Shown here piece by piece: positions 20,937-28,706 of a stretch of DNA of 64,000 nucleotides (position 1 is the first letter of the stretch; each line of letters opens with the position of its first letter). Origin of the DNA: Escherichia phage Es2. The notes beneath the pieces are model-generated. The model saw only the letters and a list, made by a program, of their open reading frames with translations. It searched no databases and was not told the DNA's origin. Location: the sequence record OR515477.1. The stretch is one strand, 5' to 3'. The translations under genes were made by a program, and so were the position numbers.

Positions 20937-21671
20937 ATGAGTCAAGTTAAAACGAATATTACCCGCTCTTTCCCGCATATTTCCCGCGTTATGATTTGGG
21001 ATCTGGACGGCACTATCATTAATTCTTTCCATCGTGTAGCGCCTTGTTTTGATAGCGAGGGCAATTTAGATTTAAATAAATATAAAAATGAAGCCTGCAA
21101 ACATCATTTAATAATGCAGGATTCATTATTGCCATTAGTTGAATATATGCGCCAGTGTATGAATGACGCTAACACGTTAAACATTATTTGCACCGCTCGA
21201 CTGATGAGCAAGTCAGATTATTATTTCTTGCGTAAACAAGGATTGCGGGGGCGTGGAAATAGCAATATCCGCGTGTTTTCCCGCGATACCCTGCACAAAT
21301 ACTTTAAAGCTGATAAAGTTAGCGAGATATACCACAGTAAGGACGCAGTTTATAAATCTTATTATTTTGAATTATTTAAACAATTATATCCGAACGCTGA
21401 TTTTACAATGATTGATGATCATAAAGGCGTGTTAGCGGCGGCGGCATCATACGGATTTAAAACGCTGGACGCACAAGCCGTTAACGATATTCTATCAATC
21501 GGTGTTACATTGATTGGTGAAACCTTTATTGATGAATCGCTCGACGATGATAATGATTATCAGTTCCTAGCAGACCGCCTGCAATTATGTTGGGAAGGTA
21601 TGACCGAGGAAGAACGCGCAGAATATAGTTGCAGTCCTCAACAGTACATCGAGAAATTAAAAGTTGCATAA
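20937..21671 (+). CDS. dmp: 5'-deoxyribonucleotidase (HAD superfamily), Dmp-like
   Basis: 244 aa, same length as T5 Dmp (from memory); WDLDGTI HAD motif I; AATCCCTTAAAT leader. Confidence 0.65.
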   Translation: MSQVKTNITRSFPHISRVMIWDLDGTIINSFHRVAPCFDSEGNLDLNKYKNEACKHHLIMQDSLLPLVEYMRQCMNDANTLNIICTARLMSKSDYYFLRKQGLRGRGNSNIRVFSRDTLHKYFKADKVSEIYHSKDAVYKSYYFELFKQLYPNADFTMIDDHKGVLAAAASYGFKTLDAQAVNDILSIGVTLIGETFIDESLDDDNDYQFLADRLQLCWEGMTEEERAEYSCSPQQYIEKLKVA

Positions 21672-21828
21672 TAATTAAAGTTGAAATAGTCACGGTGTGT
21701 AATGATAACATGCCGTGACTATTAGTCTGCTAAGTACCGGGCGGTAATGAGACTCATTCTCATCTGGTGGGCCACTGGACACACCTCCATGTGTAATCTT
21801 ATGAAATTTGGCAAAAAGGTAATTAGCG

Positions 21829-22032
21829 CTATTTACGGACTGACTGCTCAAAGACTTCCCGCCACAGAGGGTCAGTCTTAACTAGATTATTAATATGCTC
21901 AATAGCTTCATCAAATCTCATGAATCCTTCCGGGATTTCCGAAGACTTAGGAAAAACTTGCAGCATCTCCTGTGTGATACCCATCTTTTCAAGATCTTCT
22001 TGGGTTAACTTAAACTGTCCGAATTCTTTCAT
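21829..22032 (-). CDS. hypothetical protein (67 aa)
   Basis: ORF with stop/start overlap to upstream gene. Confidence 0.4.
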   Translation of the reverse strand: MKEFGQFKLTQEDLEKMGITQEMLQVFPKSSEIPEGFMRFDEAIEHINNLVKTDPLWREVFEQSVRK

Positions 22033-22274
22033 GAACTTCTCCTGTCTACCGGCTTATCTCCAGATTCTGACATACGAAATCTCTTTCGTGACGCCCGAGA
22101 ACCGTCCGCCCACTCCCTCTCAAACTCCGCACGTTTCTTCGCAAACCTCCGCTCTCTTTCCGCAATCTCCCGCGACACTTCCGCAATATATTTACGATGC
22201 GTATTAATAGCCGCAGTCATTCCGAAAACTCCCGCGATTACCCCGATAATAAAAGCAATTACAATACTAAACAT
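22029..22274 (-). CDS. small N-terminal-TM protein with charged C-terminus (81 aa)
   Basis: MFSIVIAFIIGVIAGVFG TM then Arg/Glu-rich helix. Confidence 0.4.
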   Translation of the reverse strand: MFSIVIAFIIGVIAGVFGMTAAINTHRKYIAEVSREIAERERRFAKKRAEFEREWADGSRASRKRFRMSESGDKPVDRRSS

Positions 22275-22461
22275 CTAGTTCTCTCTCAATTTGCAGAATA
22301 CGAGTGCTATCACAACGTTGCAATTCTACTAATTTTTCTATAGCAAATTGTTGTTGTTTTACCTGGGCCTCTAGAGTTTTTAGGCGAACGTACACGGTGT
22401 AAGAAATAATGAAAGCTGACCAAACTGCTAGTACTATTAATATAGCTACTACTTCCATCAT
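22267..22461 (-). CDS. small N-terminal-TM coiled-coil protein (64 aa), paralog family
   Basis: MMEVVAILIVLAVW TM; overlapping start/stop with neighbours. Confidence 0.4.
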   Translation of the reverse strand: MMEVVAILIVLAVWSAFIISYTVYVRLKTLEAQVKQQQFAIEKLVELQRCDSTRILQIERELDV

Positions 22462-22565
22462 TTACGTTTCTCCAGTAACAGAGTTTCAATTCTAGCTAAG
22501 TGGTTATCTAAAATACATTGCCCGATAATCACAATCCCTAGTAGTGCAATAATTACCCATTCCAT
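22458..22565 (-). CDS. small N-terminal-TM peptide (35 aa), paralog family, not in ORF track
   Basis: MEWVIIALLGIVIIG...RIETLLLEKRK, similar to the N-terminus of the next ORF. Confidence 0.3.
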   Translation of the reverse strand: MEWVIIALLGIVIIGQCILDNHLARIETLLLEKRK

Positions 22566-22720
22566 TGTTTACGCTCCTCTAATAAAATTTCAATCCTAGA
22601 TAATCTGTTACTCAACTGCATTAATTTAGCTTCTACTTGTGTTATAGAGGTATCTATTACACGTAAGCCTACAAAGAGAAGTATCAGTAAGATGAATATG
22701 CCAATAATTACCCATTCCAT
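22553..22720 (-). CDS. small N-terminal-TM coiled-coil protein (55 aa), paralog family
   Basis: Start set at MEWVIIGIFILLILLF; RIEILLEERK C-terminus. Confidence 0.35.
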   Translation of the reverse strand: MEWVIIGIFILLILLFVGLRVIDTSITQVEAKLMQLSNRLSRIEILLEERKQWNG

Positions 22721-22848
22721 TAAATCCACCCCGCCATAGCTGCTAACCAAAAACCTACGAAAATAAAGAATAGGATAGTTCCGAACCCAAAACTATTTAT
22801 CCAGCTATCATATACCTCTCCACGTCTGCTCTTTCTTTTGTTTGACAT
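22720..22848 (-). CDS. small C-terminal-TM peptide (42 aa)
   Basis: Start set at the ATG with GGAG 8 nt upstream (MSNKRKSRR...); basic N-terminus then hydrophobic tail. Confidence 0.3.
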   Translation of the reverse strand: MSNKRKSRRGEVYDSWINSFGFGTILFFIFVGFWLAAMAGWI

Positions 22849-23024
22849 ATCTTTCATGCTCCTATAAATGTGATTTTTGAAATATTCTATAATTTGTGCA
22901 CAACCGACCATGCCTGTGAACTCATAGAAGGACTTCTACTTTTCTTACATAGTGGTTTCTGCCAATATACCATCCAAGAAATAAAAAATTTAGTTTACTT
23001 GGATGTCTTTTTGTTTTATACTAA

Positions 23025-23291
23025 TTACAGGTAATTAGATTGCTCTAGTTTAAATTTACAATCACCGTATTTAAGGTCAAACTGACTGAGATCCCACCAC
23101 CCAAACTTAGTACGGAGCTGTACTACTGGAAAGCGATCTCCCTTAATACGAACTTTTTGAACCTTGAGGCCGTAATGTTCCTCTCCAGCACCACCAAAAG
23201 ATTTTACAAACCCCGTACAAAATGGTTTGGGGGCAGGTGCACAACCAGATAACATAACTGCGGCAACTAGTGCAATCACAAACTTTTTCAT
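23025..23291 (-). CDS. llp: lipoprotein, Llp-like (receptor-blocking lipoprotein)
   Basis: Signal peptide with lipobox LSGC; divergently transcribed from the adjacent RBP gene as in the T5 llp/oad pair. Confidence 0.55.
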   Translation of the reverse strand: MKKFVIALVAAVMLSGCAPAPKPFCTGFVKSFGGAGEEHYGLKVQKVRIKGDRFPVVQLRTKFGWWDLSQFDLKYGDCKFKLEQSNYL

Positions 23292-23376
23292 ATTTATCTC
23301 TCCATTTCTAATTTATGAATCTATTATAGCAAAATAGAGAGATGAAAGCAAATACATTTTTATAATAGGAGATTAT
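23292..23376. promoter_or_regulatory. divergent promoter region for llp and RBP genes
   Basis: AT-rich 85 bp with TATAAT-like hexamers on both strands and SD sequences for both genes. Confidence 0.35.
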
Positions 23377-25134
23377 ATGGGTTTTTTCGCTGGAAAATAT
23401 AGCGATGGTAAGACCGTACTATCTTTAAATACTGAATCTGGTGGTGACATTAATCGTCACTATAGCCCAAATGCCAATAGTATTTTTCATAGTGATATGC
23501 CATTTGTCCTAGTTGATGGTACTTACGAGGCTGGGTTAGGTAATGCCGGGAATGGGTTTTTTGTATGTCAAATGCCCTCTGACATAATAAATATTAAATC
23601 TAATGACCCGGGTAGAGTTATACTAACTGCTATTGAAATTAATGGTACTCACAGAGCTTTTCTTAATGGTACTCAGAGTAAGGTTGGTCAAACTATAGTT
23701 GCCACTCAGGCAGACCCCTTTAGGTCTTTTGCCAGTGTTTCTCAAACCAGTGGATTTGCATTTGGTAATAGTCTAGCATCTGGCACTTATAACTACAACC
23801 CCTCTCTAGGGCATGAAGAATCTATCTCTAGAAGTGGCACAGGGGGTACTACGTTACATAGTACGTATCATGGTATAGTTAGGCCCGGTGGTGGAGCACC
23901 TGTAGGAGTTACTGTTGCAGAAGCCTTTGCACAATTAGGTTTTCCTACTAATAGTAGCACAGTACCTGTAGATGGTAATAACCCATACTATTGGGATCCT
24001 GGATGGATGGCTCCTCTAGGAGCAGCATATAGGGGGCATGATTGGTTTTATGTTTGCAATTCTAATATACGTGGATATGGTGGGGTTAGGCAAGGGCTCC
24101 CTGGTAATGTAAATACTATGTACCATGATGGTGGTAATAGATTTGTTTGTAGAGGGTCTACTACTAATTTAGCTAACCAGTCGGGTGACTCTACAATACT
24201 ACAGGACTGGTATAATATAACTCCTACTAAGGTTATTTGGTATGTTCTTAATTTAAGGTACTCAAATGGTGGAATGAGTATTTCAGGTAACCCTTTCACT
24301 GGTTCTGATATTCTTATATCTCCTTCTAATTTTATAATTAAAGGGGTAAGTCTCCCTAATACCGGGTATAAATTTATTAATCAGAATGCTTTTGGTAACC
24401 TAGGTTACCGTCCTGATATGGAGTATATAGGGAATAACGCTGCGTATACTGGGGTTTTTGGGGATACCACTGCAAGGTGTGAACTTGTAGGATCTAGTAA
24501 TGGAGGGTTGTGGTCTCCTGTAGATTATGGAGGTGCCAAATCACAGATTAGCATTTACAAATTTGGAGCAGGTAAACAGTGGTATGTAAACTCTAACGAT
24601 AATACTATTGGTAATGAGCATGGGGTTGTTTGGGGACCATCAGCAGTTCCATTACGACTTTTTGGAGGAAATGTAGGTAGCTCTTACATGGGGGATGATA
24701 TTACTCCTAGCTATCCAGGAACTGGGGATAGGTACGTTGGTTTATCAACTATTGGGCTAGGTATACCTGGTGGCAATGCTACAGTAATTCTTACTACTGA
24801 AGTTATATCAGGTAATCTTAACTGTGCAGGTGTCCCAGCTAACACATGGAATAATGGTGTGTTTCAAGTACAAGGAAGAAAAGCGCATAGTTATAGTAAT
24901 GGAGATGCAATATTCCACCAGATTCTAACGCTACCTGTGGGCTATCTAGTACCTTTTCATACTACAGCAGCTTTTAGATACACCCCTAATAATGCTTTAA
25001 GCAGGAATAGTTTTATATATACCGCTAAAAACCTAGGAAATGGAAATGTAGAGTTAGGGGTAGTTATGCATGTCAGTTTAGGTAGTGCAGTTTTCTTACC
25101 TAGACTAAGAGTAACAGTTCAACGCCTTACCTAA
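23377..25134 (+). CDS. receptor-binding tail protein, pb5-like
   Basis: 585 aa, Gly/Asn/Ser/Thr-rich; position between llp and terminase; receptor specificity not determinable. Confidence 0.55.
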
Positions 25135-25144
25135 AGGAGGAAAT

Positions 25145-25627
25145 ATGGCAAATGATGTACTAGTACCAGATCTTATGTCCCCTGAAGGGATGGATGTGAT
25201 TGAAGCTTATTTACAGTGCGGCAGCGATGTGCCTTCTGCCGCACGTAGTCTTGGAATGTCCGAAATTGCTTTCCGAGATATTATGAATCGTAGTGAAGTT
25301 AAGAACTACTTAAATGATATTTTTATGGAGAGTGGTTTCCGTAATAGGGATCGTTTATTTGGTGTTCTAGATGAAGTTATTAAACGTAAGCTAGAGGAGC
25401 TAGAAGAAACTGGCATGGGTTCTGACCAAGATATTATGGATATTCTCTGGAAAGCACATAAAATGAAAATGGAAGAAATGAAGATGATGGTAGAGTTGGA
25501 AAAAGCTAAAGCTGCTGTCCGTGCTCCTGCTAATCAGACCAATATTCAGAATAACATTATTGCTGGAGCTGGGGATCAAAACTACATGGATTTAATTACT
25601 TCCCTAGCTACTGGAGGTAAAAAGTAA
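25145..25627 (+). CDS. putative terminase small subunit
   Basis: 160 aa immediately upstream of TerL with coupled stop/start; N-terminal HTH-like segment. Confidence 0.35.
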
Positions 25628-26943
25628 TGGAAGTATCAAGACCCTATGTTAATACAGTAGACGTTATTGACTTCGGAATAGATAAACGTTTCTTCCGTCT
25701 ACCTGTTTCAGGAATACTAGCACAAGAGGGTATTACACCTAATGGTCCTCAAATAGCAATTATTAATGCACTAGAAGACCCTAGACATCGTTTTGTAACA
25801 GCGTGTGTGTCACGTCGTGTAGGCAAATCCTTCATCGCATACACACTTGGGTTTCTAAAATTGCTGGAACCCAATGTGAAGGTGTTAGTAGTTGCCCCTA
25901 ACTATTCACTGGCTAATATTGGTTGGTCACAGATTCGTGGTCTTATCAAGAAATATGGGCTACAAACAGAACGTGAGAACGCTAAGGATAAAGAGATTGA
26001 GTTAGCTAATGGTTCTCTATTTAAACTAGCTTCTGCAGCGCAGGCTGACTCCGCAGTTGGACGTTCATATGACTTTATCATTTTTGACGAAGCTGCAATT
26101 TCTGATGTAGGTGGTGATGCTTTTAGAGTTCAGTTGCGACCTACTCTGGATAAGCCTAATTCTAAGGCTCTGTTTATCTCTACTCCTCGTGGTGGTAACT
26201 GGTTTAAAGAGTTTTATGCCTACGGATTTGATGATACGCTACCTAACTGGGTATCTATTCATGGTACATATCGTGATAACCCTCGTGCCGACCTGAATGA
26301 CATTGAGGAAGCACGTCGTACTGTTAGTAAAAACTACTTCCGCCAGGAATATGAGGCTGATTTCTCTGTATTCGAAGGACAGATCTTTGATACCTTTAAC
26401 GCTATCGATCATGTTAAAGACCTCAAAGGTATGCGTCACTTCTTTAAAGATGATGAAGCATTCGAAACATTACTTGGTATTGACGTTGGTTATCGTGATC
26501 CTACGGCAGTTCTTACTATTAAATATCATTACGATACAGATACTTACTATGTATTAGAAGAGTACCAGCAGGCGGAGAAAACTACAGCTCAACATGCCGC
26601 TTATATTCAGCACTGTATAGATCGTTATAATGTAGATCGTATCTTTGTTGACTCTGCAGCAGCTCAGTTCCGTCAGGACTTAGCTTATGAACATGAAATT
26701 GCATCAGCTCCAGCTAAAAAGTCTGTCCTAGATGGCCTAGCATGTTTGCAAGCGCTATTCCAACAGGGTAAGATTATTGTAGATGCTTCATGTTCCTCCC
26801 TAATTCATGCATTGCAGAATTATAAGTGGGACTTCCAAGAAGGCGAAGAGAAATTATCACGTGAAAAACCACGTCATGATGCTAACTCTCACCTTTGTGA
26901 TGCACTGCGCTATGGAATTTACTCTATTTCCCGTGGTAAATAA
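25627..26943 (+). CDS. terminase large subunit
   Basis: 438 aa; Walker A-like VSRRVGKS and Walker B-like IIFDEAA. Confidence 0.75.
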   Translation: MEVSRPYVNTVDVIDFGIDKRFFRLPVSGILAQEGITPNGPQIAIINALEDPRHRFVTACVSRRVGKSFIAYTLGFLKLLEPNVKVLVVAPNYSLANIGWSQIRGLIKKYGLQTERENAKDKEIELANGSLFKLASAAQADSAVGRSYDFIIFDEAAISDVGGDAFRVQLRPTLDKPNSKALFISTPRGGNWFKEFYAYGFDDTLPNWVSIHGTYRDNPRADLNDIEEARRTVSKNYFRQEYEADFSVFEGQIFDTFNAIDHVKDLKGMRHFFKDDEAFETLLGIDVGYRDPTAVLTIKYHYDTDTYYVLEEYQQAEKTTAQHAAYIQHCIDRYNVDRIFVDSAAAQFRQDLAYEHEIASAPAKKSVLDGLACLQALFQQGKIIVDASCSSLIHALQNYKWDFQEGEEKLSREKPRHDANSHLCDALRYGIYSISRGK

Positions 26944-27057
26944 ATAAGTATAGGATGGGATACTACTCAGTTGGTATCCCATTCCTGCATTTTAAAATCC
27001 CCTTTACAAATTCGATACGATTATGTATACTATATTCATACAGTTGAGGAGAACACT

Positions 27058-27495
27058 ATGGCAAGCAATATAAAATATAAACGCGATGCTATATCCCTTA
27101 TGAGAGACGGAATAAAAAGTCAATATAAAAAAGACTCTCAATGTGCTATCTGCGGTTGTGCTGAAGAATTAGAGCTTCATCATTACCATACGGTGTCTCT
27201 ACTAGTTAAAAAATTTGCTAAAGAACTCCAATTGGATTTCACTGACGAAGAAACAGTCCTCTCAAATAGGACGGCATTCTATGATCGATATAGGCATGAG
27301 CTAGTAGAAGACACTGTTACCCTTTGTGTACACCATCACCAATTATTACATAAGGTTTACACAAAAGAACCTCCTTTATTTTCTGCTAATAAGCAAAAAG
27401 TGTGGGTTCAAAAGCAGAAAGACAAATTACAGAATCCTCAAGAAAAGACACAAGTCAAGACTGAAACAAAATCAGGATTCGCAAGGTTCTTATAA
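27058..27495 (+). CDS. HNH endonuclease (packaging-associated type)
   Basis: C-A-I-C-G-C ... H-H ... C-V-H-H-H motif; start set at ATG with RBS GAGGAG; ORF track start is 26971. Confidence 0.45.
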   Translation: MASNIKYKRDAISLMRDGIKSQYKKDSQCAICGCAEELELHHYHTVSLLVKKFAKELQLDFTDEETVLSNRTAFYDRYRHELVEDTVTLCVHHHQLLHKVYTKEPPLFSANKQKVWVQKQKDKLQNPQEKTQVKTETKSGFARFL

Positions 27496-28706
27496 TGGGT
27501 TTTAAAAGCTGGATTACTGAAAAGCTAAATCCGGGTCAACGTATTATAAGAGACATGGAACCAGTTAGTCACCGCACTAACCGTAAGCCTTTTACCACTG
27601 GACAAGCCTATAGCAAGATTGAGATTCTCAATCGAACTGCCAATATGGTTATAGATAGTGCGGCGGAGTGTTCTTATACTGTCGGAGATAAATATAATAT
27701 TGTCACGTATGCCAATGGCATCAAGGCAAAGACTCTAGACACTCTCTTAAATGTACGACCTAATCCATTCATGGATATAAGCACATTCCGTAGACTTGTA
27801 GTCACTGACCTACTTTTTGAAGGTTGTGCGTACATCTATTGGGATGGCACAGCACTTTATCATGTCCCTGCTGCACTAATGCAAGTAGAGGCAGATGCCA
27901 ATAAGTTTATCAAAAAATTTATATTTAATAACCAGATAGACTATCGCGTAGATGAGATTATCTTTATAAAGGATAACAGTTACGTGTGTGGCACAAATTC
28001 TCAAATTTCTGGACAATCTCGTGTTGCCACTGTTATTGATTCTCTTGAGAAGCGTTCTAAGATGCTTAACTTTAAAGAGAAGTTCCTCGATAACGGAACC
28101 GTGATTGGTCTTATTCTTGAGACGGATGAAATCCTGAACAAGAAATTGCGTGAGCGTAAACAAGAAGAATTACAACTAGATTATAATCCTAGTACTGGTC
28201 AGTCCTCTGTCCTGATTCTAGATGGTGGTATGAAAGCTAAACCGTACTCCCAAATATCCTCTTTTAAAGATCTAGACTTTAAGGAAGACATTGAAGGATT
28301 TAATAAATCTATCTGTCTAGCCTTTGGTGTTCCGCAAGTGCTACTTGATGGTGGTAATAACGCGAACATTCGACCAAACATCGAACTGTTCTATTACATG
28401 ACTATCATTCCTATGCTGAACAAACTGACTAGTTCTCTAACTTTCTTTTTTGGTTATAAGATCACTCCTAATACAAAGGAAGTCGCAGCATTAACACCAG
28501 ATAAAGAAGCAGAGGCTAAACATTTAACCTCATTGGTTAATAATGGTATTATAACCGGTAACGAAGCTCGTTCAGAGCTGAACCTGGACCCTTTAGATGA
28601 TGAGCAGATGAATAAGATTCGTATTCCTGCTAACGTCGCTGGTTCCGCAACAGGTGTATCTGGTCAAGAAGGTGGCAGACCCAAAGGTTCCACCGAGGGA
28701 GATTAA
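27495..28706 (+). CDS. portal protein
   Basis: 403 aa, same size as T5 pb7 (from memory); between terminase and protease/capsid. Confidence 0.7.
   Translation: MGFKSWITEKLNPGQRIIRDMEPVSHRTNRKPFTTGQAYSKIEILNRTANMVIDSAAECSYTVGDKYNIVTYANGIKAKTLDTLLNVRPNPFMDISTFRRLVVTDLLFEGCAYIYWDGTALYHVPAALMQVEADANKFIKKFIFNNQIDYRVDEIIFIKDNSYVCGTNSQISGQSRVATVIDSLEKRSKMLNFKEKFLDNGTVIGLILETDEILNKKLRERKQEELQLDYNPSTGQSSVLILDGGMKAKPYSQISSFKDLDFKEDIEGFNKSICLAFGVPQVLLDGGNNANIRPNIELFYYMTIIPMLNKLTSSLTFFFGYKITPNTKEVAALTPDKEAEAKHLTSLVNNGIITGNEARSELNLDPLDDEQMNKIRIPANVAGSATGVSGQEGGRPKGSTEGD

Follow-up and report, generated by a model that had tools for sequence, protein, structure and literature searches.

The window analyzed here is a 64,000-nucleotide stretch of DNA from Escherichia phage Es2 (OR515477.1). 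DNA and protein searches of 50,697 phage records placed it in Tequintavirus (T5-like siphoviruses, Demerecviridae). Using an ORF listing of positions 21000-28000 and a direct reading of the DNA, we observed two divergent genes. The first, llp, lies on the minus strand (23025-23291) and encodes 88 amino acids starting MKKFVIALVAAVMLSGC. Residues 1-17 form a signal peptide and lipobox ending in L-S-G-C (23241-23291), with the lipobox Cys17 encoded at 23241-23243. The second gene lies on the plus strand (23377-25134) and encodes a 585-residue protein rich in glycine (14.0%) and asparagine (9.1%), a homologue of the receptor-binding proteins pb5, Hrs and Oad (hereafter RBP). Between them is a divergent control region of 85 bp (23292-23376). 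The initial annotation had described a lipoprotein with an LSGC lipobox divergent from a Gly/Asn-rich tail protein, and both ORFs were confirmed.

Downstream of the RBP gene, on the same strand, are terS (25145-25627; PHROG 3802, E = 1.2e-90) and terL (25627-26943), followed by an HNH-type ORF and the portal gene. Only 10 nt separate the end of the RBP gene from the start of terS, and terS and terL are probably co-transcribed with it. On the other side of llp are four small minus-strand ORFs, each with a single transmembrane segment (22029-22911; PHROGs 8596, 6369, 5851 and 6447), which are homologues of T5.159-T5.162. The order of T5.162-159 homologues, llp, oad, terS and terL is the same in the window, T5, DT57C, SPC35 and BF23, and the order of terS and terL downstream of the RBP gene also recurs in FGS017. 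The RBP gene thus sits directly upstream of terS and divergent from llp, as do genes of the pb5/Oad/Hrs type. The likeness to the T5 llp/oad arrangement proposed in the initial annotation was therefore borne out in gene order, and also in the identity of the two proteins, the RBP being a homologue of pb5 and the lipoprotein being the same as BF23 Llp.

The pair was found at ≥80% DNA coverage in 116 phage records, and its full-length presence in more than 100 records excludes a chance arrangement. At the nucleotide level the locus was 93-94% identical to the nearest phages, compared to 92-93% in the flanks (23-25 kb on each side). Because locus and flanks are equally diverged, the llp/RBP locus is neither unusually diverged nor recently swapped, and we rejected both possibilities. 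Separately, DNA identity to the closest sequenced phages reached only ~92-94% over these 23-25 kb stretches. Under the 95% rule the phage would probably qualify as a new species of Tequintavirus, although it appears standard in gene content.

We next consider the lipoprotein. Llp matched the Pfam lipoprotein signal model LPAM_1 (23.9 bits, curated cut-off 20) and belongs to PHROG 1119 (E = 1.8e-26); Pfam contained no family for its mature part. The mature protein is 72 residues long, with cysteines at positions 1 (lipidated), 9 and 62. These correspond to Cys17, Cys25 and Cys78 of the precursor, which were invariant in 12 members of the Llp family. The Lol +2 rule governs lipoprotein sorting to the outer membrane. 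As the +2 residue of Llp is alanine, Llp is expected to be sorted to the outer membrane.

Llp was identical to the Llp of BF23 at 88 of 88 residues, with five synonymous nucleotide differences between the genes, and it carries a lipoprotein signal peptide with a lipobox cysteine. The Llp of Cit2 was also 100% identical, and those of DT57C and SPC35 differed by one residue (98.9% identity). On this sequence identity, the lipoprotein of the window is a BF23-type Llp and is expected to block BtuB. Leaky expression of cloned DT57C llp has been reported to lower the plating of BF23, DT57C and DT57C relatives by a factor of more than 100, with no effect on T5 (Golomidova et al. 2016, PMC4728585). 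Likewise, BF23 Llp is reported there, by citation of Mondigler et al., to exclude BtuB-dependent but not FhuA-dependent T5-like phages (PMC4728585).

Llp resembles the Cor lipoproteins of lambdoid and T1-like phages, which are also small outer-membrane proteins that exclude phages using TonB-dependent transporters. Cor acts on FhuA. PHROG 1119 pools Cor, T5 Llp and the Llp of the window. Against the NCBIfam Cor model NF047972, however, Llp scored 15.8 bits (cut-off 31) and aligned over residues 1-35 only, which does not place it in that family. The RefSeq label "Cor superinfection exclusion protein" on Llp is a name transferred at the superfamily level.

It had also been suggested that the 88-residue lipoprotein might instead be an o-spanin, a component of outer-membrane lysis rather than a receptor blocker. 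Llp is indeed a small outer-membrane lipoprotein, and the adjacent ORFs at 22029-22911, in each of which a single transmembrane segment at the N-terminus precedes a charged or coiled-coil-like tail, superficially recall i-spanins. Llp nevertheless had no spanin PHROG match, and the holin (608-1264) and endolysin (1261-1674) lie ~22 kb away, so that llp does not stand in a lysis cassette with an adjacent, overlapping or embedded i-spanin. T5 has separate Rz-like ORFs annotated as spanins, T5.044 and T5.045, beside dnk; in the close relative MET_P1_179_112 a spanin is annotated at the same place. This position lies outside the window, a short way to its left. Llp is also identical or nearly identical to lipoproteins for which receptor-specific exclusion is reported. 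We give the o-spanin identity next to no weight and rejected it in view of the distant lysis genes, the spanin pair located elsewhere and the identity to a characterized receptor blocker.

The four ORFs at 22029-22911 are directly downstream of llp, and their homologues are conserved beside it in T5, BF23, DT57C and FGS017. We regard them as context of the llp/RBP pair and do not claim them as part of the module. PADLOC returned no defense-system match for Llp or for any of these four small transmembrane ORFs.

The RBP matched PHROG 4815 ("receptor binding tail protein") over residues 1-585 (E = 3.2e-274); neither Pfam nor NCBIfam contained a family for it. Against PDB sequences it retrieved T5 pb5 (8b14_B and 8a8c_B, E = 1.3e-50) in two stretches at ~30% identity, and we found the homology to be full-length. 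This sequence homology to the solved pb5 is decisive for the assignment of the gene as a receptor-binding protein of the pb5 type. Comparison with FGS017 revealed 114 synonymous and 12 non-synonymous codon differences, which points to purifying selection on a real gene.

RBP copies with ≥90% amino-acid identity were present in 104 phage records (tblastn), the closest being those of IrisVonRoten (Bas32) and FGS017 (97.9%). The subtype represented by phiLLS, chee24, Bas32, Bas31 (DaisyDussoix), T5_ev219, Cit2 and FGS017 has RBPs of 585 residues that are 96.6-97.9% identical to that of the window. The differences from it amount to 12-17 conservative substitutions scattered along the protein; at the nucleotide level, divergence is ~6-7% and mostly synonymous. 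The neighboring genes are as in the window, and Llp was 98.9-100% identical where compared (FGS017 and Cit2). Beyond this subtype, RBP identity fell to 74% for DT57C, 72-74% for SPC35 (depending on the alignment method), 69% for BF23 Hrs, 55% for phiR2-01 and 27.7% for H8; for T5 it was between ~30% (BLAST) and 35% (MAFFT).

We observed that divergence was unevenly distributed along the protein. Compared to BF23 (585 versus 595 residues), differences were concentrated in residues 101-300 and 451-550, whereas residues 1-100 and 301-450 were 82-88% identical. Compared to SPC35, residues 1-100 were 100% identical, residues 151-200 44% and residues 301-400 92-94%. This mosaic relation to SPC35 points to recombination inside the RBP gene. 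The tips of the pb5 loops that insert into FhuA have been placed at Gln115 (L1) and Phe170 (L2), with L4 at residues 570-590 (PMC9586334). These positions fall in variable, unalignable or deleted stretches of the RBP of the window, which fits a conserved scaffold and tail-attachment region combined with variable receptor-contact loops.

In a comparison of phages with only 69-74% identity in the RBP body, llp, the spacer (99%) and RBP residues 1-100 (82-100%) were near-invariant. This pattern implies that recurrent recombination breakpoints lie inside the RBP gene and not at the module borders. The RBPs of DT57C and BF23 have previously been described as mosaic, with a putative recombination point placed between hrs and llp (Golomidova et al. 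2016, PMC4728585).

We also inspected the 85-bp spacer for regulatory signals. Shine-Dalgarno sequences were present for both genes (GGAG at 23300-23303, minus strand, for llp; AGGAG at 23367-23371, plus strand, for the RBP gene). By manual and regex inspection, the llp strand carries a putative extended -10 element (TGCTATAAT, 23323-23331) and a weak putative -35 element (TTGCTT, 23346-23351). A sigma-70 consensus scan at a 4/6 threshold flagged no promoter in the spacer. The spacer was 99% conserved in BF23, DT57C, SPC35, Cit2 and FGS017, despite the divergent RBPs of the first three, and overlapping divergent early and late promoters are annotated at this position in the T5 and BF23 records. 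We infer that the spacer has promoter activity.

Homology to phages whose receptors were typed by experiment leads us to expect BtuB, not FhuA, as the receptor of the RBP. The RBPs of Bas32, Bas31, T5_ev219 and Baret were 96.8-97.9% identical to that of the window. For Bas31 and Bas32, btuB is one of the listed RB-TnSeq hits, with values of ~13.7-15.2, and the phage table of the same supplement lists BtuB for Bas31, Bas32, T5_ev219 and Baret (bioRxiv 10.64898/2026.04.02.716166). The supplementary phage table of the BASEL collection also gives BtuB for Bas31 and Bas32. Among 25 T5-like phages, FhuA use has been reported to be restricted to T5 and CEV2, and the 23 BtuB binders carry a protein ~30% identical to pb5 (bioRxiv 10.64898/2026.04.02.716166). 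The RBP of the window grouped with those of the BtuB phages, apart from the T5 (FhuA) and H8 (FepA) types. The initial annotation had noted that the RBP is shorter than T5 pb5, given there as about 640 residues, and had proposed on this ground that the receptor may differ from FhuA. pb5 is indeed 640 residues long and a different receptor is what we expect, but on the strength of homology; protein length provides no evidence by itself on the receptor.

A published assignment appears to conflict with this expectation. A 2026 paper on Citrobacter phage Cit2 reports an RBP 96.9% identical to T5 pb5 that clusters with T5, and gives FhuA as the inferred receptor (PMC12980165). Since the Cit2 RBP is 97.1% identical to that of the window, the same reading would make the RBP of the window an FhuA binder like pb5, with Llp alone being of the BtuB type, in a mismatched module as proposed for Cit2. 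We compared the deposited proteins (DNA: OP745948.1, 601-2358; NC_005859.1, 3001-4923) and observed 30% identity between the Cit2 RBP and T5 pb5 (BLASTP), not 96.9%. The RBP of the window is likewise only ~30% identical to pb5 but 69-74% identical to proven BtuB binders, and its near-identical relatives named above were assigned BtuB from genome-wide screens. We consider FhuA binding by this RBP subtype very improbable and rejected it because of the 30% identity between Cit2 RBP and pb5 together with the BtuB-typed, near-identical relatives. The published FhuA assignment for Cit2 appears to be wrong and to rest on a wrong identity value.

Among the closest known systems is the hrs/llp module of BF23 (OR083247), which shares with the window the locus, the orientation, the identical Llp and the near-identical spacer, has BtuB as its receptor, and differs in its more divergent RBP. 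The rbp/llp loci of DT57C and SPC35, both BtuB-dependent T5-like phages, share the architecture and differ in the RBP. T5 oad/llp, for which structures are available (PDB 8A8C, 8B14, 8A60 and 7QJF), differs from the window in its FhuA receptor. Publications on this module go back to Mondigler et al. 2006, as cited in PMC10644984 and PMC4728585.

These comparisons lead to an explanation that we hold with high confidence: the locus would encode a BtuB-binding RBP and a BtuB-blocking Llp. The RBP would be monomeric and sit at the end of the straight central tail fiber, where it would bind the outer-membrane vitamin B12 transporter BtuB irreversibly, leading to DNA ejection. Llp, produced by the infected cell, would be anchored to the outer membrane. 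There it would inactivate BtuB as a phage receptor, so that superinfection would be blocked and progeny would not be wasted on debris. Gene identity, synteny and identity to characterized proteins come from the present analysis; dependence on BtuB and exclusion specific to BtuB phages are taken from published work on proteins that are identical or nearly so.

How Llp would act on BtuB may be approached through T5. T5 Llp is periplasmic. The FhuA plug to which it binds is in a non-native conformation, and as a result of binding the extracellular loops EL7 and EL8 close inward on the site for pb5; Cys11 and Cys58 of T5 Llp form a disulfide (PMC9586334). By analogy with this FhuA-Llp crystal structure, we infer that Llp may bind the BtuB plug on the periplasmic face and allosterically fold extracellular loops over the RBP site. 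The PDB copy that we searched contained no structure of BtuB with Llp or with the RBP for T5-like phages.

The sequence comparison with T5 Llp was confined to the N-terminus. A profile comparison (hhalign) aligned the two proteins over residues 1-29 only, that is, the signal peptide and the first cysteine, and a BLASTP match (E = 1e-4) was driven largely by the signal peptide. The mature parts were not alignable, so mature-domain sequence similarity did not place Llp in the T5 type, and BF23 and T5 Llp have been called non-homologous in the literature (PMC4728585). A phmmer search of PDB sequences with Llp returned chance matches only (e.g., ovomucoid) and did not retrieve 8a60_B or 7qjf_A. 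The Llp family is narrow (11 clusters at 58-99% identity in a search of 5.8 billion proteins), so the alignment available for structure prediction was shallow. With this alignment, an AlphaFold2 model of Llp (mean pLDDT 83) predicted a small five-stranded barrel with a C-terminal helix. Foldseek found nothing significant for this model in the PDB; the single best structural match was T5 Llp, itself below significance. The best BFVD match (E = 7e-9) was a receptor-blocking protein, that of Yersinia phage phiR2-01, which depends on BtuB; a phage protein carrying the annotation super-infection exclusion came second (E = 2e-3).

Llp might block BtuB in another way: by extracellular occlusion, by interfering with BtuB assembly or sorting, or via TonB. 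We consider this unlikely. The Llps of the window and of T5 share a size class, a lipobox, a genomic position and a cysteine pair that could join the N- and C-terminal parts (mature cysteines at 1/9/62 and 1/11/58, respectively), T5 Llp is the best, albeit non-significant, structural match of the model, and the receptors of both are TonB-dependent transporters. It is from this shared size, lipidation, cysteine pair, structural match, locus and receptor class that a T5-type mechanism is suggested. Those who solved the T5 structure have argued that this mechanism applies to TonB-dependent transporters beyond FhuA (PMC9586334). Moreover, at least three RBP subtypes, 69-74% identical, occur together with a single Llp sequence, as would be expected if Llp acted on the receptor at a distance from the surface that the RBP contacts.

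The BF23-type and T5-type Llps may be very distant relatives with one disulfide-clamped, small beta-barrel fold, and hence the same plug-jamming, reverse-allostery mechanism; we judge the chances of this to be evenly balanced. If so, the service of one Llp to several RBP subtypes would mean that exclusion operates on the receptor, independently of the RBP contact surface.

The llp/RBP pair is a well-known host-recognition module of T5-like phages, already described and very common. As textbook material for this group, it matters little beyond correct annotation. It does support two predictions. First, BtuB would be the terminal receptor of the phage, in which case resistance should arise via loss of btuB and extend to other BtuB phages and to E colicins. 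Second, infected cells would exclude other BtuB-dependent phages. Both predictions could be useful for the design of phage cocktails.

We made several further observations outside the module. The left part of the window begins with early genes, among them a protease fragment (11-451) and the holin and endolysin genes. One copy of the terminal-repeat pre-early region, with dmp at 20937-21671, is followed directly by genes that abut the right terminal repeat in T5. Positions 1-22000 have the layout seen when the terminal repeats are collapsed in an assembly, a feature shared by several GenBank records. A 67-residue ORF (21829-22032, minus strand; PHROG 20937) separates dmp from the T5.162 homologue. 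At its position relatives such as FGS017 and MET_P1_179_112 have an HNH homing endonuclease (hegJ), and nothing is annotated in T5 or BF23; this site, at the boundary of the terminal repeat, is variable. A 146-residue ORF with Cys/His motifs (27055-27495, plus strand; PHROG 3497), located between terL and the portal gene, showed a weak HNH endonuclease match (E = 6e-6). The mechanical ORF call begins 28 codons further upstream, at TTG. This ORF sits where BF23 has a 438-bp gene annotated as "nicking endonuclease".
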